DNA from: Escherichia phage ESCO5
Direction: 5' to 3' (one strand)
Length of the DNA: 64,000 bases
Sequence record: NC_047776.2
How positions within the stretch are numbered: position 1 is the stretch's first letter; each line of letters begins with the position of its first letter. Under the pieces are notes generated by a model. The model had not been told where the DNA came from and did no database searches. It saw nothing but the letters and a program-made list of their open reading frames with translations. This document shows, one piece after another, positions 9,887-25,845 of the stretch. A program made the translations under genes and the position numbers.

Positions 9887-9893
9887 TAAAATA

Positions 9894-9916
9894 CCTCGCT
9901 TCGGCGGGGTTTTTTC
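9894..9916 (+). terminator. rho-independent terminator after tape measure gene
   Basis: CCTCGC-ttcg-GCGGGG stem with UUCG tetraloop followed by TTTTTT. Confidence 0.75.
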
Positions 9917-9923
9917 GTTTCCC

Positions 9924-9953
9924 TTGACACAAAGTTTCTATATGTGTTACAAT
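9924..9953 (+). promoter_or_regulatory. sigma70-type promoter for baseplate operon
   Basis: TTGACA (9924-9929), 18-nt spacer, TACAAT (9948-9953). Confidence 0.6.
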
Positions 9954-9963
9954 AATCAATATG

Positions 9964-9986
9964 GGAAGATCTTGCATCTTCCTTTT
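9964..9986 (+). promoter_or_regulatory. 5' leader hairpin
   Basis: GGAAGAT-cttgc-ATCTTCC perfect inverted repeat followed by TTTT, a few nt downstream of the predicted start site. Confidence 0.4.
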
Positions 9987-10012
9987 GGCATTATCATTAC
10001 TACGAGGTTATC

Positions 10013-10714
10013 ATGGCAGCAATGACTCCACAACAGTCGGTGAGAGCCGTCTATAAGGCAGAACAGGAAATCAACTCTACCGAGAATAAAAATACCTCGG
10101 CATCTACTGTAAAGGGTGATAATGGTTTCTGCATTTTAGCAAGTGTTTATAATAGTTCAAGTGATCAATACATTCAAAACTTTAAAGCAATTACTTTCGA
10201 TTCGGTCCCTGAAGTAGGTGTAACTCGTGAGGCAGATGTTACAAGTTTTCCAGTAGAATCAGGATCGGATGTAAGTGACCACGTTCAAATAAAAAACAAC
10301 AGATTTAAACTTTCAGGTATAATTACCGAAACACCAATTCGGCTTATGCGAGATCAATTATACAGTGCAGGTGTAAATGGAGCAAGGATTTCTCAAGCAA
10401 TAGAATATCTAGATCAAATATTTGAGTCAAGACAACCAATAGTTCTTTTGACAGAACACAGGACTTTTGAAAATGTTATTCTGAAAGGCTACTCTTATGA
10501 TTATAAATCTGAATTTGCTATGCAATTTGATTTAGAGTTCGAACAAATTCGTCTAGTCTCTAAGGCCACTACTAATGCTATTGCTGTAAAAACAGCACCA
10601 AATAAGTCAACTGGTGGTGATGTGAAAGGTCAAGTCGCTTCTAATGGTCCTAAGTCAGATATTACAGTAAGAACTGCTGAAGCTACTAATACCCCAACAA
10701 ACAACGGAGGTTAA
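10013..10714 (+). CDS. tail/baseplate assembly protein (post-tape-measure)
   Basis: 233 aa; GAGG RBS; position equivalent to P2 gpU / Mu gp43. Confidence 0.5.
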   Translation: MAAMTPQQSVRAVYKAEQEINSTENKNTSASTVKGDNGFCILASVYNSSSDQYIQNFKAITFDSVPEVGVTREADVTSFPVESGSDVSDHVQIKNNRFKLSGIITETPIRLMRDQLYSAGVNGARISQAIEYLDQIFESRQPIVLLTEHRTFENVILKGYSYDYKSEFAMQFDLEFEQIRLVSKATTNAIAVKTAPNKSTGGDVKGQVASNGPKSDITVRTAEATNTPTNNGG

Positions 10715-10716: not shown

Positions 10717-11130
10717 GTGACAACTTATTCTAAAACAACAAGGTCTACAAGTAATACTGGCTACAGTGCAGTTTATCTGGAGGACCATTCTACTTATTTT
10801 GCATGGTATCTGAAAACTGAAGAGTACCCTGATCAAACATATACAGTTACATTGGATGGAGTTGATTATGACATTCGTTTAAGGTGGAACACTAGGGACG
10901 AGTCTTGGCAATGTCAGATAGGATTATCTGGAGATGATCCAAGTATAAGTTTCAAAGTTACAAATGGTTTAGATCTTCTTAAACCTTATAAATATCTTGA
11001 AAGTGTGCCAGATGGTCAATTGTATATAGTAGATACAGTTAAGATTAATGGTCGTCCTGGGTATACAACTACAGGTCGAGATAAACGTTTTGTATTGGTT
11101 TATATTGATAACAAACCTAATCAGGCGTAA
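10717..11130 (+). CDS. hypothetical baseplate protein
   Basis: 137 aa; GTG start behind GGAGG. Confidence 0.5.
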   Translation: MTTYSKTTRSTSNTGYSAVYLEDHSTYFAWYLKTEEYPDQTYTVTLDGVDYDIRLRWNTRDESWQCQIGLSGDDPSISFKVTNGLDLLKPYKYLESVPDGQLYIVDTVKINGRPGYTTTGRDKRFVLVYIDNKPNQA

Positions 11131-11139
11131 GGAGATAAT

Positions 11140-12150
11140 ATGGCAGAAAGAGAGTATACAAAAGCTCCTGCCCCTAATTTAAACAGGGCATACAAATTAT
11201 TAATTGGTTCTGCCACAAACACAATACAGAAGAGAACTAAGAACTCGGCATTTAAATCTACAGTAGATTTGGATACTAAGTTAGGCACAACAGAAAAATC
11301 CTCTTCTAATTTGTATTTGTTGCAAGACCATCAAATAACCTTCAGCATTAAGAAAGATAATAATAAAGATCCTAACCAAGCAGAGATTGTAGTTTATAAT
11401 CTATCGGATGATACTGTTAACTATATAAACCGTGGTATCCGAAATAACTTGGCGGTTGCTCTAGCGGTAGGATACGAAGGTGAAGAGTTGGTTATGATTT
11501 TCAAAGGAACTATCCAATGGGTTAGTGATACTTTTGACTCGGTAGACAGGAAAACCACTTTACACTGTTTGGATGGCGGTATTAACATTGCAGAAGCAAG
11601 AACAAGCCGCAGTTATCCAAAAGGAACTAAAATCAAACGTGTTGTGACAGATTTGGTAAAAGATTTAGGAACTACAGAAGGTAATATACACGTAGACAAT
11701 GATCAAACCTTATCCTCAGCAACAGCTATGTGTGGAAACACTTCACATTACCTAGAACATATTTGTAAAAGTATTGATCACAATGTGTCAATACAAGATG
11801 GATCTGTTTATGTCACTCCTCGTTCACAAATGTCTAGTGCACGTAGCGCCTACATTAGCCCTGAAACTGGTCTGATAGGAAGTCCAGAACCATTCCACAA
11901 CGATATAAAACCTACTAAAAAAGTTACCAAGTCCTCTAAGAAGGCAAAGAAACCTACAGATGGTGTTAAATTCAAATGCCAAATGAATGGTGCAATACTA
12001 CCAGAAAAAACAATCTGGTTAAAAAGCCGAGATTATGATGGTCCATTTAAAGTTGTTTCTGTTTCTCACAATGGTGATAAAGAGGGTAAAGAGTGGGTTA
12101 CTGAAGTGGAGTGTGTATCCGTGTCTGAAATAATGACTAAGGAGAAATAA
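11140..12150 (+). CDS. candidate baseplate hub protein
   Basis: 336 aa; AAGGAGA RBS; immediately upstream of spike gene as in P2 (gpD) and Mu (gp44). Confidence 0.45.
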   Translation: MAEREYTKAPAPNLNRAYKLLIGSATNTIQKRTKNSAFKSTVDLDTKLGTTEKSSSNLYLLQDHQITFSIKKDNNKDPNQAEIVVYNLSDDTVNYINRGIRNNLAVALAVGYEGEELVMIFKGTIQWVSDTFDSVDRKTTLHCLDGGINIAEARTSRSYPKGTKIKRVVTDLVKDLGTTEGNIHVDNDQTLSSATAMCGNTSHYLEHICKSIDHNVSIQDGSVYVTPRSQMSSARSAYISPETGLIGSPEPFHNDIKPTKKVTKSSKKAKKPTDGVKFKCQMNGAILPEKTIWLKSRDYDGPFKVVSVSHNGDKEGKEWVTEVECVSVSEIMTKEK

Positions 12151-12884
12151 TGGATGCATTGAATTTTGTCACAGCAATGCGTGGCTTAATGACAGAACAA
12201 TTAGCAGAAGTCCATACAGCCCTGCCAGTCCGTGTGACTGGCGTTAATTATGGTGCTAAAACTGTCACTTTAGAATCTATTGTTAAAAACACACGATCTA
12301 GTGAAGATGAAATAGATTATCCTACTTTTGAAGATGTTCCTTTTATGGTTAATGGGGGTGGGACAGGAAGAATCTCATTCCCTATTAAAGCTGGCGATTT
12401 AGGAACTGTTATATTTTCTGAAAGAGATCCTTCTAATGCACTGCAAACTAGTGGAGAAACCTCTTCATCATCCACTTTTATGCAGCCTTGTGGATTATAC
12501 CCTATTTGTTTTATTCCCAAAATAGCTACAGGAACAGATTCAACAGAAGCCGTAGATTCTGAAAAGGTAGTTATTTCTAATAACAAAAACACGTACGCTT
12601 CTTTCGACCCTACAGGTAATATTTCAATATGGAATAGTCAAGGGATGAAAATAGATATTACTACCTCCGGTATTACTATTACAGATGGCACAGGGACTTT
12701 GGATCTAAAAGGTGGTAATTTAACTTTCAAAGGCGGCGTGGCAGATATCAATGGTCTTAAAATAGATCAGAACGGTTTGATGACAGATGGTAATGGCATC
12801 GGATTCCATACTCACACGCACACGGTTCGTAACATTCAGAGCGGTAACTCAAGTGCCGAGTCCTTAAAACCAACAGGAGCCTAA
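12150..12884 (+). CDS. baseplate central spike (gpV-like)
   Basis: 244 aa; Gly-rich beta-helix-like C-terminus with HTHTH (HxH) motif typical of spike apex. Confidence 0.6.
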   Translation: MDALNFVTAMRGLMTEQLAEVHTALPVRVTGVNYGAKTVTLESIVKNTRSSEDEIDYPTFEDVPFMVNGGGTGRISFPIKAGDLGTVIFSERDPSNALQTSGETSSSSTFMQPCGLYPICFIPKIATGTDSTEAVDSEKVVISNNKNTYASFDPTGNISIWNSQGMKIDITTSGITITDGTGTLDLKGGNLTFKGGVADINGLKIDQNGLMTDGNGIGFHTHTHTVRNIQSGNSSAESLKPTGA

Positions 12885-12885
12885 C

Positions 12886-13512
12886 ATGGGAATCCCTTTT
12901 GACTTAAAACTTGGGCCAAACAACGACCTCATCATGGATGATGGGGATTTGGTCCTCACTACAACCAGAACAGAAATTGCAGCACAAACTCTTGGGATAA
13001 CTCTGAACACGTATCGTGGAGAGTGGTTTTTAAATACTAACTTCGGTGTTCCTTACTTACAAGAGATTATTGGTGTTGCTAGAAAGAAAGATATTGTAGA
13101 CAGAATATTTTTAGCAGAGATTGCCAAAAACGTTTACATAGATACAATAAACAGTTATAAATCTGCTTATGACATGGATCAACGTTATTACTCAATGACA
13201 GTTATGGTGACAGTTGGAGCAGATACAGTAACATCCATATTCAATACTCAACCTTCTGAAGAGTTTATTTACCCTGAAGCTGGTGAAGACAATGCAGCGA
13301 TCATTTGTGAAGCTTACAGTATTGTTGAGAATTCGAATAGACTTTATCGCTTTATCAACTTTGTTGGTTTGCCACGTGATACCTACTCTACTTGGTGGAA
13401 TGAATGGTCTACAGAGTCAGCAGGGGAAAGAATCATGGTTAACGAAAAAGGTGATGCATTAGCTACAAACAATAATTTCGGTATAACAGCTATGACAGGA
13501 GTAGAAGAATAA
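12886..13512 (+). CDS. baseplate wedge protein (gp25/gpW-like)
   Basis: 208 aa; N-terminal DLIMDDGDLVLTTTRTEIAAQ...YRGEWFLNTNFGVPY resembles GPW/gp25 family; follows spike gene. Confidence 0.5.
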   Translation: MGIPFDLKLGPNNDLIMDDGDLVLTTTRTEIAAQTLGITLNTYRGEWFLNTNFGVPYLQEIIGVARKKDIVDRIFLAEIAKNVYIDTINSYKSAYDMDQRYYSMTVMVTVGADTVTSIFNTQPSEEFIYPEAGEDNAAIICEAYSIVENSNRLYRFINFVGLPRDTYSTWWNEWSTESAGERIMVNEKGDALATNNNFGITAMTGVEE

Positions 13513-13985
13513 TGGCAGATTTAACTACGATCAAAGTTTCTGATCTTACACAAACAACCTCTGTGTCTGATACAGATTTCTTTGTAACAGATCAGGCTGG
13601 AATAACAAAGAAGACTTCTTTGAAAGTGCTGTTGAGTGGTGCAGGGGTAACTAGAAACCGTTTAAATGCACGGGGAACAGTAACTAGCACCTTGGCATTA
13701 GATATTAGTTCAGCAGAATATTTTTCGGCAACCTTATCTTCTGCAACGTGCACAATTAGTTTTACTAATATTCCAGTAGCAACGAATGCAGTTTTAAACT
13801 TTACTTTAGCTTTGCGTCAAGGAAGTGGCGCAAATAAAGTCGTATGGCCTTCTTCTGTAAAATGGAGTTTTGGTCGTTCCCCAGTTTTGAGTTATCGTCA
13901 AGGTGCAACAGACACTTTTGAGTTTATCAGTTATGATAATGGAGCAACTTGGACAGGTAGCTTAGTTTTAGCAGGAGTTATTTAA
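13512..13985 (+). CDS. hypothetical baseplate/tail protein
   Basis: 157 aa; start overlaps upstream stop. Confidence 0.5.
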   Translation: MADLTTIKVSDLTQTTSVSDTDFFVTDQAGITKKTSLKVLLSGAGVTRNRLNARGTVTSTLALDISSAEYFSATLSSATCTISFTNIPVATNAVLNFTLALRQGSGANKVVWPSSVKWSFGRSPVLSYRQGATDTFEFISYDNGATWTGSLVLAGVI

Positions 13986-16861
13986 TGTCAAGAGTTAAGC
14001 ACAATATTGACAACACGTTTCAGTTGATTGAAGGGTTGGTTCAGTTTTTGGAAAGAAATACTGGGCTTACCATAGATCCTACGGTTCAGCATTACATTAT
14101 CAACCCACAAAACGTATTGGCGAACAACAGACACTTTATTAACTGGACAGCGCAGGAAGGGCAACCAAACGGTGACGCTACTACCGAAGGTCAATCTGTG
14201 CTTATCACTGGTTTTGCTTATGCATATTTGGCTACAGGGGATAAAAAATATCTTGAATCTGCCGAGAAGTATTGGCAAGCCTATATAGATCACTTCTTCG
14301 GGGGCCAACCTATTCCTGATCCTCCAGCTAAATATCGTCCCAACTGGATCATCAATGGTAAAGAACCACGTTTAGCACATTACCCTCTCACAGATGATGG
14401 GTATCCTACGCACGGCGGGTTCAAAGGTAGCATGATGACTTGGATTAACGGAAGGACTGTTATTCCTAAAGGTGCACCGCATTGGGGGGAATACTTAGAT
14501 AAAGCTTGGTTTGCTTTCAATGGCAATCTTGGTTGGAACTCCGTTAACGCAACAGTTTATGCAACTAACCCAGATGGTTCAACTAACTGGAAAGAATATG
14601 GAGATCAGTGGGATGTTGAATGGATTATAGATCGTCTAGGACGTAAAGTTGATTGGGATGGTAACATCTTATCTACAGGTCACAGCTTTGCAGAATATGG
14701 AACAGTGCAACTTAAAAATGCTTCTGTGAACGGTGACTATAAATTCAACTACGCTACATGCAACCCTGTAGAACACGGTGGATATCTGCTTAAGCGTAAT
14801 GAGATGTGGCATAACCGTCCTGTAAACGTTCCGGTAGAATTAGGTTATCAAGATAATGCTTCCGATGCGGAAACGTGGTGGTGTGATGCAAACTACTTGA
14901 TGTATCAGATCACAGGAGAGAGAAAATACTGGCTTTGCTGGCAATCTTCTTTATTGCTGTGTCAAGACTACTCAAACATTGATATGTTTGATAAATTCTT
15001 CCGTAGATCTACGACAGCAATAATTCCTTTTACAGATGGTATCTCTTATGATTACTCATACCCATCTACAGCAATACCTAAATACTCTCGTGACGAATTA
15101 GGATACACAGTAATTCGACAAGATGTTGCAGCCCAAACAACTCTAGAACAACAGGCAGTTTGGTTCAGAGTGGATCAGAATTCAAAACTGCGTATTGAGT
15201 TTCAAGGTGTAGATGATGCAGGGGAAGGTATTCTTTTCCGTCCAGAGTTAGAATTAAGCAAGACTAAGAGTGAAACAGACACAGTGACATATCGTTGTGG
15301 CTTACCTCTTGGTGCAGCTAATATGACTAAGATGGATATACCTTTATCTAGTTTTATGCGCACCGAACCTCCTGGAGGTGGTGTATATATTATTGCTGAA
15401 CCTAGAATCATTGTTGACTGGGGAAGCAATACTGTGATACAATATAAATATGCAACTGGTATTGCTGGGACAAATAGTGATCAGATAGTTTCTGCTAATA
15501 TGGATTCAGATGGTGGTTTTACTGTTGGGTTTTGGTTAACACCAACTAAAACAGCCAATTTAAAATCTATTACGTATCGTTCATACGCAGATGATTTTAA
15601 CATCACTATTACGGATTCCGCAGGTTGGAGATGGTGGGCCATGTTAGAAAAAACAAATTCTACATGGGTTACTAAAGCTTTAAGTCCTGCTGATTTCAAA
15701 TTAAGTACTTGGCAACCTAATCACGATGACACAGAGACAAAACCTTCGTCAATAAACCTGACTGCTATTGATCAGATCAATATTGCATTGGATTCTGAAC
15801 CTGCAAATGGCTTGACAGGGGCAATCGATTTTTATTGCGTTAACGATATCCCATCTTTGTATTCTTCAGCCACTGGTGATGACTACACAATGTATTTCAG
15901 GGTTACAGTTTCATCTGAAAATCCTTATACAGCAAAACTTGGAGATTGTACAATACTGGACTACAAACTTGACAGTTTGAATTATACTCCAGGAATCATT
16001 CCATTTTCTAATATTAGCGATCCTAACACAGCATTATATGACGGTTGGCGCGGTATTCCTTACCCAGGTTATCAATACCCATCCTTATATTGTTTTAAAG
16101 GGAGAGATATTGATTGGGTTCGTATGAACAACAGTATAGACTTTTTATATGATTCACAAATGTGGTTTTATAATAAGTTTGCCCCTGTGATGCCTGGGCC
16201 AATGGCACAAGCTTATGTTTGGGATCGTTGGGATGCTCATAAATACGGAAACAAGAATGAGTTCACAATGTATCATTGGAACGATAAAGCTTGGGATGGG
16301 TATGAAGCACGAGCATTCTTCTGTGCGTGTCATACAGTATACGAACTTAAACAACGAGGAGCAGAAGTTCCTGAAAAACTTTTAACAGTTTGTAAAAACT
16401 GGATCAACTATCTGAAGTGGTTCCAAGACAACAACGAAGGAAGAACACCAACAATATTTTATCCCAATGGAGAAGTGGCAGCGCCTGTAGATGACTTTAC
16501 AAGTCACATGTCTGCGCTCTTTATGGCAGGATGTGCTATAATGGGGATGGCTGGATATGATTCAGAAATTCCTAACATTAAAATAGTAGCAGACCGCTGT
16601 TTTGAACTTATTCAGGAAAATTATATTGTTCTTGGTCCTAATCATGTTATGAATGGCTGTTGGAGTTCCGCTCCTAGACCAGATAGTGATAACGGAGTCT
16701 TCTTTGGCTTCCACGCTGGAGAGTTGTTACGTGGTTTTGGGTTGTATGCTTTATACAAAAAACTTAATCCCCAAAATGCATTACCTGTTTTGGATTCGAG
16801 CAATATTCCTGCACTTACTGTTTTGACAATGGCAAACATTAGTGTGGACGTTACCGAGTAA
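13985..16861 (+). CDS. tail fibre / candidate polysaccharide depolymerase
   Basis: 958 aa; large Trp/Tyr-rich protein in fibre cluster; AGGAG RBS. Confidence 0.5.
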   Translation: MSRVKHNIDNTFQLIEGLVQFLERNTGLTIDPTVQHYIINPQNVLANNRHFINWTAQEGQPNGDATTEGQSVLITGFAYAYLATGDKKYLESAEKYWQAYIDHFFGGQPIPDPPAKYRPNWIINGKEPRLAHYPLTDDGYPTHGGFKGSMMTWINGRTVIPKGAPHWGEYLDKAWFAFNGNLGWNSVNATVYATNPDGSTNWKEYGDQWDVEWIIDRLGRKVDWDGNILSTGHSFAEYGTVQLKNASVNGDYKFNYATCNPVEHGGYLLKRNEMWHNRPVNVPVELGYQDNASDAETWWCDANYLMYQITGERKYWLCWQSSLLLCQDYSNIDMFDKFFRRSTTAIIPFTDGISYDYSYPSTAIPKYSRDELGYTVIRQDVAAQTTLEQQAVWFRVDQNSKLRIEFQGVDDAGEGILFRPELELSKTKSETDTVTYRCGLPLGAANMTKMDIPLSSFMRTEPPGGGVYIIAEPRIIVDWGSNTVIQYKYATGIAGTNSDQIVSANMDSDGGFTVGFWLTPTKTANLKSITYRSYADDFNITITDSAGWRWWAMLEKTNSTWVTKALSPADFKLSTWQPNHDDTETKPSSINLTAIDQINIALDSEPANGLTGAIDFYCVNDIPSLYSSATGDDYTMYFRVTVSSENPYTAKLGDCTILDYKLDSLNYTPGIIPFSNISDPNTALYDGWRGIPYPGYQYPSLYCFKGRDIDWVRMNNSIDFLYDSQMWFYNKFAPVMPGPMAQAYVWDRWDAHKYGNKNEFTMYHWNDKAWDGYEARAFFCACHTVYELKQRGAEVPEKLLTVCKNWINYLKWFQDNNEGRTPTIFYPNGEVAAPVDDFTSHMSALFMAGCAIMGMAGYDSEIPNIKIVADRCFELIQENYIVLGPNHVMNGCWSSAPRPDSDNGVFFGFHAGELLRGFGLYALYKKLNPQNALPVLDSSNIPALTVLTMANISVDVTE

Positions 16862-16869
16862 GGGGTAAA

Positions 16870-19023
16870 ATGAAACAAGCTATATTTACTGTCACGCGAG
16901 ACAAGAGAGTAAATGCGAGTTCATTTAACTACACGACTGTTGATGGAACAGCAGTCGCTGGTAGAGATTATATTGCAAAATCGGGAACACTTGTGTTCCC
17001 TGATGATGCTGATTCTGCTACCATTGTGGTTGAAGTATTTGAACGACCAAAGAACTCAATAGATCTTAACTTCTCCCTCCAAGTTTCAGGGATTAGTCAA
17101 AATAACATGATGGTTGAAACGACCATCAACTGTATTATAACTACGATTCAAGAAAATACTACTCCAATAACTTGGACTACAAAAGACGTTAAAATGTTCT
17201 CTCCTATGTATTGGACAATAGATTCTCAAGCAACGGAAAGTTGTTCTATTGTATCTCATGGAGACTCTTTTACTGCAAGATTTGTAAACAGAACAACAGC
17301 AGGTTTGGCAGGGGTTATCTGGAGCACAGTTGACAAATATGACCATAAAGGTGTTGGGTATTTACCCCACACAGATTTAAGTTCAGAGAAACTTTGGTTT
17401 AAAATGGAAGTTAGTCAAAACATGCCAGGTTTTAAAGAAGAACCTTTGGTGCCAACTTTGACTGTAACTCTCTTGGATAAAAGTGTCCACTATGTTAGTT
17501 TAGGATTTTATGCTTCAGATATTTCAGAAGATGGTAAAACAGCTACAATCAAACTAGATTTTGGTAATATCTTCTCTGGTCCTAATAATGATATTCCTTT
17601 GGACATGAGTGCTGTAGATAATATTTTCTTCTCTTTGATTACAGCAAGGTATGAAGAAATAGAAGAGATTGTACCTATTGATAGTCAAGAGGCTTGGTTT
17701 ACTTTCACTCTTCTTGAACCTACTTCTGGTTATAGTATGATGAAAGTCAGTAACCTTGTCCAGCCTGAACATGATATTCGCATGTGCACATCTTATGACG
17801 ATATGTATAACCTGACTCCAGAGAGAGTTATTTATAATACATATGCGCTAGGTTATCGTGGAATGATTAACCATTACAACGGAATGTCTCACTATTATGA
17901 GTTCTCATGGAACGGAACATCTTGGGCTTTAAATAGATCTGTCTTCCTGAATCCAGCTACAGAAGCTTGGCTAAATAGTTTCCATTCTATAGCGAACGAG
18001 AAGGGTTACACAATAATGAACTCTTTAAGTTTTGAGTTGATGAGCACAGTTTGTCCTGTAGAATGGGTCCAGCATGATTGGAACGATGCTCTTGCAGCAA
18101 CAGGGTATGAGCCTCCTAGTTACGTGTTGTCTCCAACTATTGACGAAGGTATGAAATATTTGCAAAATGTTATTAATAAAATAGCATCTATTTCGCAAGC
18201 TAATAATATTCCAGTTGTCATTCAAATTGGTGAGCCTTGGTGGTGGTATAATACAGCGAGTAAAATGCCTTGTATATACGATTACACTACTAAACTAGCA
18301 TTCAACACAGAAACAGGTTTATTTGCACAAGATGTAGGAACAATAGATAATTATAAAACAGGAACACCGTTTGACGAATACTATGCATTTTTGTCTCGTA
18401 AACTAGGATTAAGAGTTGCAAAGTTTGCAACAGATACTAGATTAGCCTATCCTGGAGCTAAAGTTACATTATTACCATTTGTGCCATCCATTTTAGGTAA
18501 CGGTATGATGGAGTTTGTTAACTTCCCTAAAGATTATTATATCCCAGAAAACTTCGACTTTTATTGTTCAGAGTGTTATGACTGGTTGTTGGAAGGTAAG
18601 ATGGAAAAATCTTTTGACGCTATCACAATACCTAATGAACAATTAGGTTTTAGTTATGATAAGATACATTATCTTGCAGGTTTTGTTCCAGATGCTACTC
18701 TTGCACCTTTGTATAGCTTTGATCCTGAATCAAACTACCGCACGTATCTTTGGAAAATGATTATAGGTAACATAGTGTTGAACGCCAATAAGTTCAATGG
18801 ACTTACACAATATATATGGGCCTATCCTCAAATAATGCACGATTCTATCACGGTAGTTAATTCTCAATCCCAAGTTTTCTATATGGGTAACGTGCCTTTG
18901 AACGTTTATTTACAGGATATCACTCTTAAACAGGTAAATGTTGAGATTGCCACCATAAGTGGAATTACATTAGCCACTAAATCTGGAGAAGATTTAGTAA
19001 CAACACAAAAATTTTATATATAG
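16870..19023 (+). CDS. tail fibre protein
   Basis: 717 aa ORF in fibre cluster. Confidence 0.5.
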   Translation: MKQAIFTVTRDKRVNASSFNYTTVDGTAVAGRDYIAKSGTLVFPDDADSATIVVEVFERPKNSIDLNFSLQVSGISQNNMMVETTINCIITTIQENTTPITWTTKDVKMFSPMYWTIDSQATESCSIVSHGDSFTARFVNRTTAGLAGVIWSTVDKYDHKGVGYLPHTDLSSEKLWFKMEVSQNMPGFKEEPLVPTLTVTLLDKSVHYVSLGFYASDISEDGKTATIKLDFGNIFSGPNNDIPLDMSAVDNIFFSLITARYEEIEEIVPIDSQEAWFTFTLLEPTSGYSMMKVSNLVQPEHDIRMCTSYDDMYNLTPERVIYNTYALGYRGMINHYNGMSHYYEFSWNGTSWALNRSVFLNPATEAWLNSFHSIANEKGYTIMNSLSFELMSTVCPVEWVQHDWNDALAATGYEPPSYVLSPTIDEGMKYLQNVINKIASISQANNIPVVIQIGEPWWWYNTASKMPCIYDYTTKLAFNTETGLFAQDVGTIDNYKTGTPFDEYYAFLSRKLGLRVAKFATDTRLAYPGAKVTLLPFVPSILGNGMMEFVNFPKDYYIPENFDFYCSECYDWLLEGKMEKSFDAITIPNEQLGFSYDKIHYLAGFVPDATLAPLYSFDPESNYRTYLWKMIIGNIVLNANKFNGLTQYIWAYPQIMHDSITVVNSQSQVFYMGNVPLNVYLQDITLKQVNVEIATISGITLATKSGEDLVTTQKFYI

Positions 19024-19031
19024 GAGTAAAA

Positions 19032-21797
19032 ATGTCAACTACAATTACTAATTTACCCGAAACATCAAAAGTTAATGGTTCTGATTACCTGGTTTTAGAC
19101 CAACCTGATAAGACTGTTAAAAGCACAGTTTCCAACTTTCTTACTGACACTGGGGTGGTTTTAGCCACCCAGTTAAAAGATATTTCTGGAGCTACCAAGT
19201 ACCCAGAACTTCAAATGTCACGCTGGAGAGATGAAGGTGATCCTAGAGGATGGGGAGCAGTAGGTGACGGAGCAACAGACGATACCAATGCCATAACACA
19301 GCTTCTTGCTGCTATGCCTGATGGATGGATTATTGATGGGCGTAATCTCACTTTCAAGGTTACAACACTACCAGATATAAGCAAGTTTAAAAACGCTGCT
19401 TTTGTTTACGAGCGTATTGTTGGACAACCCCTTACTTATGTATCTGAAGGTTTCTTCGATGGAAATCTGACAAAGATTACGGATACACCATTTTACAATG
19501 CTTGGACGCAAGATAAGACGTTTGTTTATGACAATGTTATATATGCACCATTTATGGCTGGCGAACGTCATGGTGTACAAAACCTCCATGTAGCGTGGGT
19601 TAAATCAGGAGATGATGGACAAACTTGGTCTATGCCAGAATGGTTAACTCCAATTCATCCTGATTATAATGCCTCTTCAGCAAACAAAGTTAACTATCAT
19701 TGTATGAGTATGGGCGTATGTGGTAATCGCCTATATGCAGTCATCGAAACCCGTTATTTATCTAACATGCGATTGAAGAAAGCAGAACTTTGGTCACGTC
19801 CAATGCCTTATTATAGAAGGCCAACTGGAGGTATAACAATTAGTTCTGGGTCTACTACGGCGACGATTGTTTTAGAAAAGCATGGTCTTAAAGTTGGAGA
19901 TGCTGTTAACTTTTCCAATTCAGGTGCAACTGGTGTATCTGGAAATATGACTGTTGCATCTGTAATTAACAAGGATACATTTACTGTTACATTAGCGAGT
20001 GCTGCCACATCTAATATAGATAATACAGGAACTACTTGGCATTTTGGAACACGTTTCTGGGATAGCCCTTGGGAAATTACAGAATTACCAGATGTTGCCT
20101 ATTCTACTAATGCAGACTTATGTGTTACAGAAACCCATAGTTTTACAGTTATAGATGATGATAATTACACTTTTGCTGTGGGTTATCACAATGGTGATGT
20201 TTCCCCAAGAAGATTAGGTATTTTGTATTTCAATAATGCTTACTCTGACCCAAGTTCTTTTACTCGTAGAACAATTAGTCAAGAATATGCTGACAATGCA
20301 GCAGAACCCTGCATTAAATATTATGATGGAATTTTATATTTAACTACTAGGGGTACTTCAACTTCTGCTGCTGGTTCTACATTAGCAATGAGTGCTGACC
20401 TTGGAGAAAACTGGAATTACTTAAGATTTCCTAACAACGTTCATCATACAAACCTACCATTTGCAAAAGTTGGTAACTACCTTTATATCTTTGGTACAGA
20501 ACGTTCATTTGGAGAATGGGAAGGAGAAGAACTAGATAATAGATATAAAGGTACGTATCCTCGAACGTTTATGTGCAAGATTAATGTATCTGCATGGCCT
20601 GCATCTTTATCCGATGTTCAATGGTTTAATATCACCGATCAGATGTATCAAGGGCATATTGTTAATTCTGCATGTGGTGTTGGTTCGGTATGTGTTAAAG
20701 ATGGTTGGTTATATTATATCTTTGGAGGCGAAGATTTCTTATCTCCTTGGTCTATTGGGGATAATAGTAAAAAATTATGGTACAAGCACGATGGTCATCC
20801 AGCCGATTTATATAGCTATAGACTAAAGATTACCGAACATGATTTTGTATCACGTGATTTCAAATATGGAGCTACGCCAAACCGTACATTGCCTGTATCT
20901 ATGGGTACAGATGGGGTAAGGCATGTCTCAGCCCCTGTAACTTTTGATAATGATGTGCAAGTACACTCTTTAACAGTTACTGGTCTTGAGCATGATGGGA
21001 CACAACAATCTGCCGTTAGAATAAAATTAGATGGTGATTATGGGGTTGTTGCAAAAAATGTCCCAATAAAAAATCCTTCTGAACAGCGACTAATCTTATG
21101 TGGAGGAGAAACTCCTTACGTTACTGATGGATCGCTATTACAACTATATGGTTCAAACCATACGTATCCAAACAGAGCAGTTTTATATGCCCCAGGAGGA
21201 GCATATACCCAAAATAATTTCATGCCATATTTAGATGGACAAGTTGCATTAGGTGGTGCATCTAACAGATGGTCAGAAGTGTACGCATCTACAGGAACCA
21301 TTAATACTTCAGATGGAACATTAAAAACTAAACCTACAGAGATTGAAGATATTTTACTGAAAGCGTGGGAAGATATTCATGTAATCTCTTATCAATGGCT
21401 GAGTGCTATCGCGGAGAAAGGAGATTCTGCGCGTATTCATTTTGGTGTTATAGCTCAAGATGTAAGAGATATTCTGATTAATTATGGTTTAATGGATGAA
21501 AATAGCACTGATTGTAAGTATGCTTTTCTGTGTTATGATGAATACCCTGCTATGTACGATAGTGTTGTTACGGGACAAAAAGAAATCCCTTTATTTGATG
21601 ATGAAGGGAATGTTGTAATTGATGAAGAAGGTAATCCAGTAACAATCGTAGAAGATGTTGTAGAAACTATCGAAATAATTCCAGCAGGATCGCGATGGGG
21701 TATCCGCGCTGACCAAATGTTTTTTATTGAGATGGCTTATCAACGTAAAAAGTTAAAAGCTCTTGAAGAAAGACTTGCAACCCTGGAAAGTAAATAA
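19032..21797 (+). CDS. tailspike with C-terminal intramolecular chaperone (peptidase S74-like) domain
   Basis: 921 aa; GAVGDGATDDTNAI pectate-lyase-type motif; C-terminal TSDGTLKTK...IHFGVIAQDV...LEERLATLESK resembles self-cleaving chaperone of endosialidases and L-shaped fibres. Confidence 0.6.
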   Translation: MSTTITNLPETSKVNGSDYLVLDQPDKTVKSTVSNFLTDTGVVLATQLKDISGATKYPELQMSRWRDEGDPRGWGAVGDGATDDTNAITQLLAAMPDGWIIDGRNLTFKVTTLPDISKFKNAAFVYERIVGQPLTYVSEGFFDGNLTKITDTPFYNAWTQDKTFVYDNVIYAPFMAGERHGVQNLHVAWVKSGDDGQTWSMPEWLTPIHPDYNASSANKVNYHCMSMGVCGNRLYAVIETRYLSNMRLKKAELWSRPMPYYRRPTGGITISSGSTTATIVLEKHGLKVGDAVNFSNSGATGVSGNMTVASVINKDTFTVTLASAATSNIDNTGTTWHFGTRFWDSPWEITELPDVAYSTNADLCVTETHSFTVIDDDNYTFAVGYHNGDVSPRRLGILYFNNAYSDPSSFTRRTISQEYADNAAEPCIKYYDGILYLTTRGTSTSAAGSTLAMSADLGENWNYLRFPNNVHHTNLPFAKVGNYLYIFGTERSFGEWEGEELDNRYKGTYPRTFMCKINVSAWPASLSDVQWFNITDQMYQGHIVNSACGVGSVCVKDGWLYYIFGGEDFLSPWSIGDNSKKLWYKHDGHPADLYSYRLKITEHDFVSRDFKYGATPNRTLPVSMGTDGVRHVSAPVTFDNDVQVHSLTVTGLEHDGTQQSAVRIKLDGDYGVVAKNVPIKNPSEQRLILCGGETPYVTDGSLLQLYGSNHTYPNRAVLYAPGGAYTQNNFMPYLDGQVALGGASNRWSEVYASTGTINTSDGTLKTKPTEIEDILLKAWEDIHVISYQWLSAIAEKGDSARIHFGVIAQDVRDILINYGLMDENSTDCKYAFLCYDEYPAMYDSVVTGQKEIPLFDDEGNVVIDEEGNPVTIVEDVVETIEIIPAGSRWGIRADQMFFIEMAYQRKKLKALEERLATLESK

Positions 21798-21825
21798 TAC
21801 CGCTTAGGCGGTATTTCAATCTTTA
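21797..21825 (+). terminator. rho-independent terminator
   Basis: ATACCGC-ttag-GCGGTAT followed by TTCAATCTTT. Confidence 0.6.
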
Positions 21826-21845
21826 TATCTCACTTAGAGGTACTC

Positions 21846-22109
21846 ATGGTTAAAGAGAAAAACGGTTTTAAAAAATTTATTCGCGGAATGTTCTGCACTT
21901 ACCCCGGCAACGGGGTAAGCTCTACGAAAGTCTGGAACGCTGTAGGCATGTCGGTTATGACAGGCATGTTTATCTTTTTAGGAATAGAAAAAGAAATTCC
22001 TGAATGGATGGGTTGGGCTTTTGTTTTCATGATAACCCCTTCTCGCCTCATGAAAAATCTTATTGATTTACGTTGGGGCAGATCACAATCTACCAAAGAG
22101 GATGACTAA
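21846..22109 (+). CDS. small membrane protein (two predicted TM segments)
   Basis: 87 aa; hydrophobic stretches AVGMSVMTGMFIFLGI and WMGWAFVFMITP; holin-like topology but located within the tail module. Confidence 0.45.
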   Translation: MVKEKNGFKKFIRGMFCTYPGNGVSSTKVWNAVGMSVMTGMFIFLGIEKEIPEWMGWAFVFMITPSRLMKNLIDLRWGRSQSTKEDD

Positions 22110-23596
22110 TGGACGAATATGGTTTGACAGATGCGGGATTTGTAATCCCGACTTTTGACGATGTTTTAAACAACTACATGACAGCAGTAAAAAACACATT
22201 TGGTGCAGATGCAGCCACTTCGGAAGATACTGTGATCGGACAACTGTTTAGAATAATTGCATACACAGATTACACATTGTGGGAAGGTATGCAAGGGGTT
22301 TATAATACTCAAACACTGGATGGTGCAGAAGGTATTTATCTTGACGAAATCTTTTCTAAACGTGGTTTCTATCGAGCAGGGGCAGCAGCAAGTACAGGTT
22401 ATGCATATGTTAAAAGTAATAACAAAGCAGCTTGGACTTACGAGTTAGGCACAGATATTTACTTCAACTCTGATAGCGATATGAACTACTATGTTAGCAC
22501 ACCAACTATGTTGAATGCTAAGATTGCAGCTTATCAAATTTCTCGTGCTAATGCCACTGCTACAGGTGTTCCAAATATTACTTTTTATGCACAAAGTGCG
22601 ATAGATGGAGGACTAAACAGTAAAACACTTGCACCTGGTTCTTCTACATTTATAGCCGATCTTGAAACTTTTATCAAGGCAAACTTAACAGAGGCTGATC
22701 GTAGTCTTGTATTTTCTGATTCTGGTAACTTGTCAATTGGTTTTACTTCTTTAACCAGTGATACTCCAGTGGGACTAGTAACTCCTATCAAATTTTATGC
22801 TAGTGTTCCAGTTGGAACCAAATGGAGTGAAATTCCGGTAGTTGCAGCAGAGAAAGGATACAATCCGGTGGGTGTGGAGTCTATTACAGGGATATCTTCT
22901 ACCTTTACAGGTTATCTTGATAGTGGTAACTTCTATTCGTTTTCTCCTGGTCGAGATGTTGAGACAGATGCAGAATTCCGCTCTCGTTTCAATGACAACG
23001 TTGACGAAGCTAACGCAGGGACACGAGCAGCTATTGTGAAAGCTCTGTTACTTACAGATGGTGTTACTAAGGTGAAGATTTATGATAACCCTACGTTACA
23101 TGATCAAGAACATGCTCCAGCTATGACTTTCCAGACTATAGTCTATGGAGGGAGTGCTGAAGAAGTTGCTGAAGTTATTTACAAAACTAAACCAATCAAC
23201 AGTTTGACACATGGAACAACTAACATAACTGTTACAACGGAAGACGGAGGACAAGAAATTATTCGTTTTTCTCCTGGTGCTTCTGCTACGTATTCCGTAA
23301 AACTTGTTTATCAAACTGTCAACGGAACAACTTTAAGTGGAACAGAAAAACAAAACATTGTAGAAGCTTTACAAAACCTGCAAGCTTACTTTGAATTAGG
23401 TTCTTCAGTAACGAACGATCAAATCAAAGGTGTTATTTATGCAGCACTTGCTTTTGGACGCTTGACTTCTCTTCGTGTTTATGTTAAACTTAATACTGAG
23501 GATGACAGTAAATATACAGAGAATAATATAGTTCCTGCTTATAATGTTGTCCCTTCTTTTGACCTTGATAACATTTCTTACGAGTATGGAGTGTAA
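22109..23596 (+). CDS. baseplate wedge protein (gpJ/gp6-like)
   Basis: 495 aa; N-terminal region typical of Baseplate_J family; followed by gpI-like gene. Confidence 0.6.
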   Translation: MDEYGLTDAGFVIPTFDDVLNNYMTAVKNTFGADAATSEDTVIGQLFRIIAYTDYTLWEGMQGVYNTQTLDGAEGIYLDEIFSKRGFYRAGAAASTGYAYVKSNNKAAWTYELGTDIYFNSDSDMNYYVSTPTMLNAKIAAYQISRANATATGVPNITFYAQSAIDGGLNSKTLAPGSSTFIADLETFIKANLTEADRSLVFSDSGNLSIGFTSLTSDTPVGLVTPIKFYASVPVGTKWSEIPVVAAEKGYNPVGVESITGISSTFTGYLDSGNFYSFSPGRDVETDAEFRSRFNDNVDEANAGTRAAIVKALLLTDGVTKVKIYDNPTLHDQEHAPAMTFQTIVYGGSAEEVAEVIYKTKPINSLTHGTTNITVTTEDGGQEIIRFSPGASATYSVKLVYQTVNGTTLSGTEKQNIVEALQNLQAYFELGSSVTNDQIKGVIYAALAFGRLTSLRVYVKLNTEDDSKYTENNIVPAYNVVPSFDLDNISYEYGV

Positions 23597-23598
23597 AA

Positions 23599-24228
23599 AT
23601 GGCAGTGAGTGTTGACCATGTAACAACTTGGGCCAGTATCAATGAAGATGTTAAAAACCTTCTGATTGAAGATTTTAAATCTTCTCCTAACATTGTCAAG
23701 CTCCTCTACATCGTATCCAGTGAAAAGCAAAAGATAGATCAGGCAATGATCTATCTTGCTAAACACCGCTTGATCTCCACAGCCACAGGCAAATACCTAG
23801 ATATCTTAGGAGAAGAAATGGGGATCGAACGTAATGGCTCTGATGATGAAGAGTATAGAACAATATTAAAAATCAGGGCTTACCGCGTAGCCTCATCGGG
23901 GACTCGTGGTGACATAATTGATATCTTCGCCCGTTTCACAGGAACAGAGCGTGAAACGCTTAATACTTACGTAGGTTTGAATAAAACCTTTGATGTGTTT
24001 TTCTACAACCTGTGTCTTCAATCTGATCAAGCTTTAGAGCAGTTGCTAAGTGTTTTCCCTATTATTAGTAGCTACCGTCTTGGAGCAAAAGCAGGATCAG
24101 CTTTTGGTTTTAGTTCTTATTATGCTGCCAAACCGCCTCATGGTATTGGTGGTTTAGGTTCCCTGTACATGGAATCTACTGGGGATGAAACAGGACGCAT
24201 GTGTACGCTTCTCAAGCAAATAGATTAA
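23599..24228 (+). CDS. baseplate wedge protein (gpI-like)
   Basis: 209 aa; position after J-like gene, before fibre gene (P2 order J-I-H-G). Confidence 0.5.
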   Translation: MAVSVDHVTTWASINEDVKNLLIEDFKSSPNIVKLLYIVSSEKQKIDQAMIYLAKHRLISTATGKYLDILGEEMGIERNGSDDEEYRTILKIRAYRVASSGTRGDIIDIFARFTGTERETLNTYVGLNKTFDVFFYNLCLQSDQALEQLLSVFPIISSYRLGAKAGSAFGFSSYYAAKPPHGIGGLGSLYMESTGDETGRMCTLLKQID

Positions 24229-24237
24229 GGAGTTTAA

Positions 24238-25299: not shown

Positions 25300-25845
25300 A
25301 TGATATTTACAAACTTTAAAAAATATATTCCTGAAGACCCTGAACTAAAAGAATTGGTAGAAGCAGAGAACATTCTTTTTCTTCGTTGCGATCAAGGTTA
25401 CGATTGGTATGATTTACGTAGCACAGAATTCAATAACGATAAAATGAAAGTCGTTTTTGATGATCAAAATCGTATTGTGTTTTGGAATACTGATCCTACA
25501 CTACTTTGCCCTGAAGATCTTTCTATAGCACAAGTAGACTTTAACATAGATACTTTTGAGGATATTAGGAACAAGGTTCTGGATTTAGAAACCTTAACTC
25601 TTAAGAATAAAGAGTATTCCCGTGAAGAGTTGATGACACAAGCTAGTGCAAAAATTCGCTCTTTACAAGAAACAGCGGTAGCACTTATAACACCTTTACA
25701 GTATGCTAAAGATTTAGAAATGGCTACTGAAGACGAATTAGCTTATCTTAAAAATCTTCAAGTTTATGTAGTTAAACTAAATCGTGTTCCGCTTCAAAAA
25801 GACTATCCTTACGCTATAGATTGGCCTACATTACCGACAGAATAA
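25300..25845 (+). CDS. putative tail fibre assembly protein
   Basis: 181 aa; start overlaps fibre stop; position analogous to P2 gpG. Confidence 0.4.
   Translation: MIFTNFKKYIPEDPELKELVEAENILFLRCDQGYDWYDLRSTEFNNDKMKVVFDDQNRIVFWNTDPTLLCPEDLSIAQVDFNIDTFEDIRNKVLDLETLTLKNKEYSREELMTQASAKIRSLQETAVALITPLQYAKDLEMATEDELAYLKNLQVYVVKLNRVPLQKDYPYAIDWPTLPTE

Follow-up and report, generated by a model that had tools for sequence, protein, structure and literature searches.

In phage lambda, the PR'-tR' region combines a constitutive σ70 promoter with a promoter-proximal pause and Q antitermination. For the rV5-like phages, a late motif, TggTAaAAtA, has been predicted along with 33 promoters and 20 terminators (PMC3606486), and neither a phage RNA polymerase nor homologues of T4 gp33/45/55 have been reported for these phages (PMC3606486, PMC7344957). 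The PeSL cassettes of RB49 and phi1 consist of a strong σ70-like promoter and one or more adjacent stem-loops in intergenic DNA (PMC2839356, PMC4122927). In bacterial mRNAs, stabilization by a 5'-terminal stem-loop is established (Emory 1992, Bouvet & Belasco 1992, and Bricker & Belasco 1999, cited in PMC3997798).

Here we compare with these systems the 126-nt gap between the tail tape measure protein (TMP) gene and a Dit-like gene in Escherichia phage ESCO5 (NC_047776.2). The window, by which we mean the whole 64-kb stretch of this DNA that was analyzed, is ~100% identical in the junction region to Escherichia phage vB_EcoM_REC (REC), a Phapecoctavirus. Considered alone, the junction is a terminator-promoter pair of the textbook kind, and the stop-and-restart signal that it forms between TMP and baseplate genes is ordinary but real and conserved in related phages. 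A leader hairpin behind the promoter is a weaker addition, specific to certain lineages and of unproven role. We consider it likely, with the hairpin counted as part of the explanation, that the junction punctuates transcription within the late (structural) module of a phAPEC8-like myovirus.

RESULTS

Genes flanking the junction

The sequence elements, statistics, conservation, covariation, and gene context given below were obtained directly in our analysis, and the features are collected in Table 1.

Table 1. Features at and around the TMP/Dit-like junction (positions within the window)
Feature	Position	Strand	Basis
TMP gene, 662 aa	7898..9886	+	PHROG 16051 'tail length tape measure protein', E = 0
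Intrinsic terminator: 7-bp stem, UUCG tetraloop, U6	9893..9915	+	Scan call and fold statistics
-35 hexamer TTGACA (6/6 consensus)	9924..9929	+	Sequence, scan; invariant in all Stephanstirmvirinae relatives examined
18-bp spacer ending in extended -10 TGt (9945-9947)	9930..9947	+	Length of 18 and TG kept in every relative
-10 hexamer TACAAT (5/6)	9948..9953	+	Sequence, scan, pattern count
Island of unusually high conservation, -10 to ~codon 17 of Dit-like gene	9950..10063	+	Comparison with PsgM04F
Predicted transcription start, A9959 or A9961	9959..9961	+	Usual σ70 spacing, 6-8 nt past the -10
Leader stem-loop GGGAAGAU / 5-nt loop CUUGC / AUCUUCCU	9963..9983	+	Fold; relatives
Shine-Dalgarno GAGG (10004-10007) and ATG (10013) of Dit-like gene	10004..10015	+	Sequence; RBS annotated in ESCO13
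Dit-like / tail-tube initiator gene, 233 aa	10013..10714	+	Pfam PF21821 Dit_like, E = 9e-27
Remaining presumed unit: plug, hub, spike, wedge, tail fiber/spike genes	10717..34050	+	Pfam/PHROG matches, ORF map

The gene upstream of the junction carries the same TMP annotation in RefSeq relatives, and reading of the sequence places its TAA stop codon at 9884-9886. The Dit-like gene, the first of the presumed downstream unit, is followed by genes for a baseplate plug (PF22479), a hub, and a spike, as identified by Pfam. An earlier first-pass annotation had located the junction between tape measure and baseplate genes, and the matches on its two sides (PHROG 16051 upstream; PF21821, PF22479, hub, and spike downstream) bear this assignment out. 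The name given to the Dit-like gene product differs among records of phi92-like phages, being either 'tail tube initiator protein' or 'tail fiber protein'.

Terminator

The terminator stem begins 7 nt past the TMP stop codon, on the coding strand, and is laid out as ACCTCGC (9893-9899), a TTCG loop (9900-9903), GCGGGGT (9904-9910), and a run of six T residues (9910-9915). Five of the seven pairs in the RNA stem (ACCUCGC/GCGGGGU) are GC pairs. The predicted fold of -12.4 kcal/mol (z -3.9) was equaled by none of 200 shuffles, and the element was also called in a promoter/terminator scan of 5-15 kb. When six lineages were compared, using sequences hand-anchored on the loop, compensatory changes were present in five of the seven pairs, 97.6% of cells paired, and none of 500 shuffles matched the score. 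The same terminator is already annotated by ARNold in the GenBank records of Schickermooser and ASO2A; in the FKP3-like lineage, no terminator was found at the junction.

The element displays what is expected of an intrinsic terminator, namely, a GC-rich stem with a short loop, a U-tract, a position at a gene end, and upkeep in relatives. The UUCG-tetraloop terminator with U6 reported in the first-pass annotation is present as described, with a stem that compensatory changes have kept intact. Judged by these features, it is a strong terminator with predicted release that would end or attenuate the sheath/tube/chaperone/TMP transcripts, and the upstream transcription unit would finish at the end of the TMP gene.

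Promoter and extent of the downstream unit

The near-consensus promoter TTGACA-N18-TACAAT lies at 9924-9953, 59 nt 5' of the Dit-like ATG, exactly as had been claimed; the TG of an extended -10 (9945-9947) had been overlooked. This promoter was the top-ranked site in the 5-15 kb scan, matching at 11 of 12 hexamer positions in addition to the TG. The pattern TTGACA-N13-15-TGnTAnnAT occurs four times in the window versus 0.06 occurrences expected. Both hexamers, A2 and T6 of the -10, a spacer within the range of 16-18, the TG, the frequency of the pattern, its orientation, and its intergenic position all agree with a σ70 promoter of the extended -10 type. The -10 region with the TG, TGtTACAATA, matches the rV5 late motif TggTAaAAtA at 8 of 10 positions (PMC3606486). 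The literature that we searched contained no transcription starts, transcriptomes, or reporter data for Stephanstirmvirinae, Phapecoctavirus, or Vequintavirus/Vequintavirinae.

A second promoter-like site at 9985-10014 (TTGGCA-N18-TATCAT) was treated as a chance match because its -10 overlaps the start codon, and its transcript would miss the ATG. The presence of a consensus σ70 promoter does not account for when the late module is expressed.

We located the motif in 20 loci from relatives, examined as 1.5-7.2 kb pieces around the junction. Within these pieces, each locus has a single match, which lies at the TMP/Dit junction with a spacer that is always 18 bp long; every Stephanstirmvirinae relative examined follows this rule. 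Spacer sequences are 50-56% identical to other lineages and the -35 is 100% conserved; that is, the functional promoter positions are conserved and the neighboring bases drift. This pattern of an invariant -35, TG, and -10 across genera, set among drifting spacer and flanking sequence, lends good support to the first-pass proposal that the baseplate genes have an independent σ70-type promoter, whose activity we infer from it. The conserved TTGACA indicates a complete σ70 promoter rather than a -10-only late motif. At the orthologous junction, the Vequintavirinae carry a terminator plus TGnTAAAATA, which matches the rV5 late motif. None of the eight late motifs published for rV5 (Table S4) matches the junction motif of LTH01, phiTE, or CR3 (Vequintavirinae). 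The terminator region varies between lineages; the promoter and leader are common to them.

A promoter census past the junction returned no comparable intergenic plus-strand promoter for ~24 kb of baseplate and tail-fiber genes. The only other plus-strand site within the unit, at 15414, is weaker and intragenic, and the intergenic gaps of the 10717..34050 unit hold only terminator-like hairpins, of which there are three, at 21798-21845, 29248-29311, and 31337-31377. Because no comparable plus-strand promoter follows it in an intergenic gap of this block, the junction promoter probably drives all ~24 kb. That it is the last of its kind had not been noticed in the first pass.

Leader hairpin and conserved island

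As the first-pass annotation had stated, the predicted leader begins with a perfect 7-bp inverted repeat, with arms GGAAGAT (9964-9970) and ATCTTCC (9976-9982) around a 5-nt loop, and TTTT follows directly at 9983-9986. A G9963-U9983 pair could lengthen the stem to 8 bp. The hairpin lies 2-4 nt from the 5' end predicted from the -10 spacing (a start at A9961 or A9959). Taken alone, the hairpin is no outlier: its fold of -8.7 kcal/mol (z -1.7) was equaled by 13 of 200 shuffles and ranks at the 8th percentile among random 40-mers. Perfect 7-bp inverted repeats number 84 in the 64-kb window versus ~35 expected by chance.

In the lineage of PsgM04F, phiWec188, and L019, which is ~25% diverged, all 21 positions of the hairpin are identical, and the flanking coding sequences (CDS) are 70-77% identical. 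Phage anhysbys has a single A-to-G change in the hairpin, which retains a U.G pair. No two-sided covariation (double changes) was observed in the hairpin among the relatives compared. The hairpin is absent in L022/23 (where the 5' half is kept), in the FKP3-like, Vequintavirinae, and short-leader lineages, and in L030, and several relatives keep the promoter without it. A search of the 156-kb REC genome for a second copy with at most one mismatch gave none. We also rejected an inverted repeat of phi92 as cross-genus covariation of the hairpin: it is non-homologous and, with a normal start site, would give an RNA fold of only -3.7 kcal/mol.

Across the REC genome, a strong 5' hairpin, defined as one whose folding energy does not exceed the 5th percentile for random sequence, follows 49% of 47 promoters (Mann-Whitney p = 5e-7). 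Strong hairpins that are unrelated in sequence lie downstream of the terminase-to-portal promoter in REC (-20.8 kcal/mol) and phi92 (-16.2 kcal/mol).

The hairpin falls within an island of ~115 nt that is unusually similar between the window and PsgM04F. The leader is identical at 55 of 59 positions, as are 49 of the first 51 nt of the Dit-like CDS; in the rest of the gene, third codon positions are 44% identical. Given 75% identity, the probability of at least 55 matches in 59 is 3e-4. The island reaches well past the hairpin into the CDS, so selection may have acted on something other than the hairpin. Neither RNAalifold nor single-sequence folding revealed structure in the island beyond the hairpin (leader z +0.6 versus shuffles). 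An Rfam scan of 9700-10300 yielded only sub-threshold matches to terminator-containing sRNA models, with no family at the gathering score; thus, no known RNA family is present. The invariant start ATATGGGAAGAUC is common even to a lineage lacking the 3' arm.

Two small ORFs were rejected as genes because their length or presence is not conserved: a 54-aa ORF at 9861-10025 is broken by an insertion in other lineages, and a leaderless ORF from the ATG at 9961 would encode 31 aa in REC, 14 in PsgM04F, and 7 in L022, with no ATG in phi92 (lengths read off the sequences by eye). The sequence CAATAT-GGGA was considered as a σ70-dependent pause element and is retained only as a low-probability reading, its key -10-like positions not being conserved in L022/23 and phi92.

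DISCUSSION

The elements at the junction can be assembled into a simple model. The strong intrinsic terminator, 7 nt past the TMP stop codon, would end or attenuate the sheath/tube/chaperone/TMP transcripts; 14 nt further on, the σ70-type promoter would restart transcription near 9959-9961, and ~24 kb of baseplate and tail-fiber genes would be served from it. In the nascent RNA, an 8-bp stem-loop would form 2-4 nt from the 5' end, where it may slow RppH/RNase E 5'-end-dependent decay, as in the ompA and papA mRNAs. From the sequence comparisons we infer that the promoter is used in vivo, where transcription starts, how far the operon extends, and what the hairpin may do. Among the roles that the hairpin might have, we tentatively favor that of a 5'-terminal stem-loop stabilizing the mRNA as the most likely one, at somewhat short of an even chance. 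The first-pass annotation had offered a stability element as one of two possible functions; the presence of strong hairpins after about half of the promoters genome-wide fits this part of the proposal and makes it plausible, and the lack of the hairpin in several relatives that keep the promoter speaks against it.

The same lack would be expected if the hairpin had no function of its own and were an incidental 7-bp repeat in a leader conserved for other causes, for instance through a short patch of gene conversion or because the translation-initiation region is constrained, with terminator and promoter still working as proposed. We regard this as a possible but doubtful explanation. It agrees with the ~35 such repeats expected by chance per 64 kb, a z-score of only -1.7 and a rank at the 8th percentile of random 40-mers, the lack of two-sided covariation, and the extent of the island, which takes in the whole leader and 17 codons beyond the stem. 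However, promoter-proximal hairpins are strongly enriched genome-wide, those at the portal promoter recur in two genera with unrelated sequences, and the sole substitution observed preserves pairing. Another reading is that either the inverted repeat or ATATGGGAAGATC, the conserved start, works at the level of DNA or as a protein-binding site, where a phage or host factor bound at about +5 to +25 would delay or tune the baseplate unit. Against this, the A-to-G change of anhysbys breaks the DNA palindrome and leaves the RNA U.G pair in place. Such a site would account for conservation of 21 of 21 positions where neutral sites are ~44% identical and for the retention of the 5' half ATATGGGAAGATC in L022/23, where the 3' arm is missing. 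The phi92 inverted repeat, which reaches 3 bp upstream of the expected start and is in this respect like a DNA palindrome, and the 9-bp inverted repeat that brackets the portal-to-next-gene promoter in both genera point the same way, as does the need to time expression from a consensus promoter that sits in a late module. Nevertheless, the palindrome occurs nowhere else in the 156-kb REC genome with at most one mismatch, and there is no candidate regulator, making a binding site unlikely. In particular, an operator shared by the targets of a phage regulator was rejected because neither the palindrome nor its half-sites recur at other promoters.

The other function suggested in the first pass, an attenuator, did not hold up. 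With UUUU directly behind its stem-loop, the start of the leader could form a leader terminator limiting entry to the baseplate genes, and the PeSL stem-loops of T4-type phages do terminate transcription (PMC2839356). But the stem is weak (-8.7 kcal/mol), it is followed by only four U residues, and the plus-strand terminator scan gave no call for it. Moreover, the U-tract is interrupted (CCUCUUUG) in the PsgM04F lineage, whose stem is perfectly conserved, and the leader has no alternative structure that could act as a competing antiterminator fold (z +0.6), so we give attenuation hardly any credence. We think it highly unlikely, too, that the promoter-like sequence owes its conservation mainly to service as a recombination linker where two modules meet, as in PeSL or modular-evolution models, and adds little transcription during infection, with the baseplate genes expressed by read-through. 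A mosaic boundary does lie at the junction: for PsgM04F and phiWec188, identity is 92-96% on either side but only 37-64% in the 3' part of TMP, and similarity resumes in the intergenic region. The variation of the terminator region between lineages that share promoter and leader is also in keeping with a linker. A linker, however, should be conserved as a continuous stretch, whereas only the -35, TG, -10, and spacer length are fixed, with spacer sequence down to 50%, and the strong terminator just upstream makes read-through alone improbable for 24 kb of genes.

Besides stabilizing the mRNA, the reading that we prefer for the hairpin, the leader could have a role that involves the island as a whole. 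It is quite unlikely, to our minds, that the ~115-nt island, including the hairpin and the invariant start ATATGGGAAGAUC, docks a phage-encoded regulator. One conceivable form is a translational repressor binding the 5' untranslated region (UTR) and initiation region; in another, equally only conceivable, RNA polymerase would pick up a factor while paused near the promoter and then read through the three internal terminator-like hairpins. Either form, if true, would account for late genes being served by a consensus host promoter.

Like lambda PR'-tR', the junction has a near-consensus, constitutive-looking σ70 promoter at the head of a very long late operon, as presumed here, with internal terminator-like hairpins, and its conserved initially transcribed region contains CAATAT-GGGA, which resembles a -10-like element with GGG after it. 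Unlike in lambda, neither a Q-like protein nor a Q-binding element has been identified, the promoter has no strong terminator immediately behind it, and the key positions of the -10-like element are unconserved in L022 and phi92. The arrangement of a Rho-independent terminator and then a promoter for the host RNA polymerase between structural genes is shared with the rV5-like phages; in contrast to their -10-only late motif, the Stephanstirmvirinae junction also conserves a perfect TTGACA -35.

In its architecture only, the junction resembles the PeSL cassettes of RB49 and phi1 (PMC2839356, PMC4122927), in that a strong σ70-like promoter and an adjacent terminator-type stem-loop lie in intergenic DNA, and it shares with them a boundary with mosaic exchange. 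It differs from the cassettes in being single-copy in REC and outside any repeated family, in lying in the conserved structural core (TMP/Dit-like) rather than in an ORFan-rich hyperplastic region, and in having as its strong stem-loop a classical terminator 5' of the -35, the second hairpin being weak. The REC early region (144-154 kb) has ~20 repeated cassettes that are truly PeSL-like, and only these form such a family. With the ompA and papA 5' UTRs, the junction would have in common a stem-loop that starts ~2-4 nt into a long mRNA, one that has to last while many kilobases of it are translated; unlike theirs, its stem is short, AU-rich, and not present in all relatives, and its 5' end is a predicted one.

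The junction provides a testable map of late transcription organization in phAPEC8/phi92-like therapeutic phages, in which the host RNA polymerase would restart behind the TMP gene and transcribe ~24 kb of baseplate and receptor-binding genes. Such a map may be of use in phage engineering, where tail fibers could be swapped or cargo inserted with the operon left intact. A further matter that it touches is how rV5-like and phi92-like phages time their late genes with no known late sigma factor and no polymerase of their own.

Organization of the junction between the tape measure and baseplate genes

The 1.2-kb query covering window 9400-10600 was 100% identical to vB_EcoM_REC (REC; OM386667.1; Phapecoctavirus, Stephanstirmvirinae) and 97-99% identical to ~60 phAPEC8-like phages. 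With the offset fixed at 66,473, the window and REC agreed to ~38.2 kb except for a single mismatch at 30343; given the divergence past this point, the window differs from the deposited REC record in the replication-gene region. The differences from OM386667.1 across window 38264-64000 at that offset were scattered, and indels are probable.

The first-pass annotation had described a UUCG-tetraloop terminator with a U6 tract, a TTGACA-N18-TACAAT promoter and a perfect 7-bp inverted repeat followed by TTTT, all between tape measure and baseplate genes. Each element was present where described, and a consensus scan called the terminator as well. The placement was also correct, since the tape measure protein (TMP) gene lies upstream and the Dit-like, plug, hub and spike genes lie downstream. 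A 72-aa ORF preceding the TMP gene is annotated in Schickermooser and absent from the REC record annotation. Its position fits that of a putative second tail assembly chaperone product, for which frameshifting is a frequent route.

Features of the junction, the downstream block and related promoters (window coordinates unless a REC or phi92 piece is named)
Feature	Coordinates	Strand	Remarks
72-aa ORF	7659-7877	+	PHROG 16039, E = 2e-45; between tail assembly chaperone and TMP gene
TMP gene	ORF end 9886		PHROG 16051, E = 0
Terminator	9893-9910; T6 9910-9915		stem ACCTCGC, loop TTCG, stem GCGGGGT
Junction promoter	-35 9924-9929; -10 9948-9953		TTGACA, 18-nt spacer, TACAAT; read from sequence
Leader inverted repeat	9964-9970; 9976-9982		GGAAGAT, ATCTTCC, then TTTT; read from sequence
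Conserved island	9950-10063		~95% identical to PsgM04F/phiWec188 lineage; leader and first 17 codons, synonymous sites included
Dit-like/tail-tube-initiator gene	ORF start 10013		PF21821, E = 9e-27
Genes 3' of Dit-like			baseplate plug (PF22479), then hub, spike
Promoter-like site	15414-15443	+	TTGACT-N18-TGaTACAAT; 10/12 plus TG; inside 958-aa gene 13985-16861
Terminator-like hairpins	21798-21845; 29248-29311; 31337-31377		between tail-fibre genes; no promoter after them
Near-consensus sigma70 sites	19038; 23699; 32063	-	early-type 16-bp spacer; antisense in/between tail-fibre genes
Structural-module sigma70-like sites	REC 61.27 kb; 64,259; 65,951; 70,531; 76,397		64,259, terminase to portal; 65,951, portal to next gene; 76,397, junction promoter
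Terminase-to-portal promoter	L016:14256-14356 (REC); L054:6431-6527 (phi92)		orthologous; TTGACA-N17-TG-extended
Portal-to-next-gene promoter	L016:15923-16015 (REC); L054:8097-8192 (phi92)		TTGACA-N17-TGTAGACT; ~500 bp before window start in REC
Early cassettes	L017:44322-50000 and L018:1-4100 (REC 144.3-154.1 kb)		outside window; between very small ORFs

We compared junctions from phi92-like phages (Justusliebigvirus), the PsgM04F/phiWec188/IMG-VR L019 lineage (~73-77% nucleotide identity), Klebsiella FKP3-like phages, IMG/VR lineages L022/23 and L030, and three Vequintavirinae phages (LTH01, phiTE and CR3). The terminator starts 7 nt past the TMP stop codon, and the records for Schickermooser and ASO2A already list it as an ARNold annotation. 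Its fold of -12.4 kcal/mol (z -3.9) was equalled by 0/200 shuffles, and every lineage examined save the FKP3-like phages had a terminator here. Its stems differ by lineage (CCUCGC/GCGGGG, GGGGC/GCCCC, ACCCGC/GCGGGU and GGGGGC/GCCCCC) around a common UUCG loop. In an alignment anchored on the loop by hand, in which strict orthology of all hairpins is not assured, 97.6% of cells were pairing, five of seven pairs had two-sided changes and the covariation score was reached by 0/500 shuffles. The FKP3-like junction (L006, L007, L008 and L024) measures 52 nt, and its annotated ATG lies 5 nt past the -10, ahead of any plausible transcription start; the true start is probably ATGGCAGAT, 23 nt past the -10, in which case the leader would be very short and lack a Shine-Dalgarno sequence.

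Directly before the -10 at 9948 is a TGt overlooked in the first-pass annotation, making this a predicted extended -10 promoter. It ranked top in a consensus scan of 5-15 kb (11/12 plus TG), and TTGACA-N13-15-TGnTAnnAT occurs four times in the window, versus 0.06 expected from shuffles. Every Stephanstirmvirinae locus fetched held one promoter-pattern match, precisely at the junction and with an 18-bp spacer throughout. The -35 was identical at 6/6 positions in both PsgM04F and phi92, amid spacer identities of 50% and 56%, respectively, and 37% for the terminator region in PsgM04F; such invariance amid spacer drift is the classical phylogenetic footprint expected of a promoter. At the Vequintavirinae junction, the terminator precedes a TGnTAAAATA that has no recognisable -35 and agrees with the TggTAaAAtA motif upstream of rV5 late genes reported by Kropinski et al. 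(PMC3606486), which the REC -10 region (TGtTACAATA) matches at 8/10 positions. The prophage- or tailocin-like relatives with Dit-like proteins of 53-57% identity (L025-L053) lacked a promoter at the junction, and it is apparently the large lytic myoviruses that carry a restart promoter. In the L025-L053 set as a whole (IMG/VR contigs of 16-76 kb, possibly prophage- or tailocin-like; Dit-like protein identity 53-74%), the Dit-like gene abuts TMP or is set off from it by a short hairpin alone. Taken together, conservation and covariation leave the proposed terminator followed by an independent host-type promoter well supported at the sequence level.

Predicted transcription of the baseplate and tail-fibre block

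A promoter census over the entire REC genome placed a sigma70-like site in each larger intergenic gap of the structural module, most with a TG-extended -10, and phi92 had the same promoters at orthologous junctions. Because the census revealed no comparable intergenic plus-strand site past the junction promoter up to the block end at window 34,050, the promoter at 9924 is likely the source of ~24 kb of baseplate and tail-fibre mRNA. Within this block, the single weaker plus-strand site is intragenic and could be either chance or an internal promoter; the other gaps hold terminator-like hairpins only. With no promoter following the hairpins in the tail-fibre gaps, the distal genes would have to be expressed via read-through or partial termination. 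One of these hairpins, AGCCCCGAAAGGGGCTTTCTTTTT, lies 9 nt ahead of the next ATG.

The leader hairpin and other promoter-proximal stem-loops

Taken singly, the leader hairpin does not stand out: its fold of -8.7 kcal/mol (z -1.7) was equalled by 13/200 shuffles and sits at the 8th percentile among random 40-mers of the genome; perfect 7-bp inverted repeats numbered 84 per 64 kb, where ~35 are expected by chance. The hairpin is 21/21 identical in the PsgM04F lineage, and an Rfam search of the leader region returned no matching family.

The first-pass annotation had offered an attenuator or a stability element as possible roles. An attenuator was not supported by the weak stem, the run of just four U and the lack of an alternative leader fold (z +0.6), and is made unlikely by a broken U-tract (CCUCUUUG) in a lineage with a perfectly kept stem. 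A shared operator is also unlikely, as the 156 kb REC genome contains no second copy of the palindrome and the sole substitution observed, an A-to-G change in anhysbys, retains an RNA U.G pair at the expense of the DNA palindrome. We prefer, tentatively, to read the hairpin as a putative 5'-terminal stabilising stem-loop, a plausible role in which transcription from the predicted start at A9959 or A9961 would leave 2-4 unpaired nt 5' of the stem. Such a near-terminal position is known from the stabilisers of ompA and papA mRNA, which according to references cited in PMC3997798 protect against 5'-end-dependent RNase E decay. Counting against a stem-loop function at the junction, L022/23 kept the 5' half (ATATGGGAAGATC) and lost the 3' arm, short-leader lineages have no hairpin, and the phi92 inverted repeat is non-homologous and weak (-3.7 kcal/mol if the start follows the -10 at the usual spacing).

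Alignment of REC promoters on the -10 revealed ~20 early promoters at 144-154 kb (TTGACA-N16-TAAGAT-like, or TTGACA-N16-(TG)nTAAGAT-like), with a GC-rich stem-loop (e.g., aUAGGGCGGCAAUGGUGCCGCuc or TAGGGCGGCAATGGTGCCGCTC; -12 to -17 kcal/mol) 7-9 nt past the -10. For 47 REC promoters whose intergenic position was judged by eye, the 40 nt past the start had a median fold of -9.3 versus -4.0 kcal/mol for random 40-mers (Mann-Whitney p 5e-7), and 49% reached the 5th percentile of the random folds or lay below it. The terminase-to-portal leader hairpins of REC (-20.8 kcal/mol, z -4.8) and phi92 (-16.2 kcal/mol) are unrelated in sequence, and no other site in these genomes argues as well for selection of a 5' stem-loop. 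This enrichment, together with the portal hairpins in two genera, suggests that these phages habitually place a stem-loop at the 5' end, the position also occupied by the weak junction hairpin.

The PeSLs of T4-type phages combine a strong sigma70-like promoter with a stem-loop and have been shown to act as both promoter and terminator (PMC2839356). The REC early cassettes are alike in architecture, whereas the junction locus is single-copy and in the conserved core, which argues against its being a PeSL. No paper describing the early cassettes in phAPEC8-like phages was found. The portal-to-next-gene promoter region is nearly identical between the REC and phi92 genera, and a 9-bp inverted repeat, CAAATATCC...GGATATTTG (8/9 in REC), brackets its -10 and start; this repeat may serve as an operator, or as a stem of the PeSL type that overlaps the -10. 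TATGGGA lies 6 nt past this -10, exactly as at the junction locus.

A conserved leader island

The sequence best conserved between REC and the PsgM04F lineage was neither gene but an island of ~115 nt that runs from the -10 as far as about codon 17. Matches to PsgM04F numbered 55/59 in the leader (probability of at least 55 matches at a 75% background, 3e-4) and 49/51 in the first 51 nt of the Dit-like coding sequence, versus 70-77% identity to the lineage over the rest of the gene (44% at third codon positions). No stable fold beyond the hairpin was found in the island. Either sequence-level selection acts on the entire 5' UTR and initiation region, or the island is a short gene-conversion patch, an option made plausible by the mosaic boundary at the junction. 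Between PsgM04F and phiWec188, the 5' part of TMP is 92% identical and the 3' part 37-64%, and identity climbs back to 90-96% once the intergenic region is reached; exchange of the TMP C-terminus, as a module with its end at the terminator, appears to have occurred. The junction is a well-conserved case of a known element type, already annotated in part in public records, and the island is the sole aspect of it that could conceal novelty.

Timing of baseplate expression

Relatives' genome papers place sigma70-like promoters mainly in early and middle regions (PMC7344957), no T4-type late factors are reported (PMC3606486), and the literature searched held no experimental transcription data for these phages. 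The near-consensus minus-strand sites read TTGACA-N16-TAAAAT (twice) and TTGACA-N16-TGtTATTAT, the three comparing with ~0.7 expected per strand in 34 kb by a hand estimate; a -12.6 kcal/mol hairpin follows the site at 19038. These sites may be antisense promoters. Delayed expression would have to be reconciled with a consensus sigma70 promoter in a late module, and antisense control is one conceivable delay mechanism for the baseplate unit.
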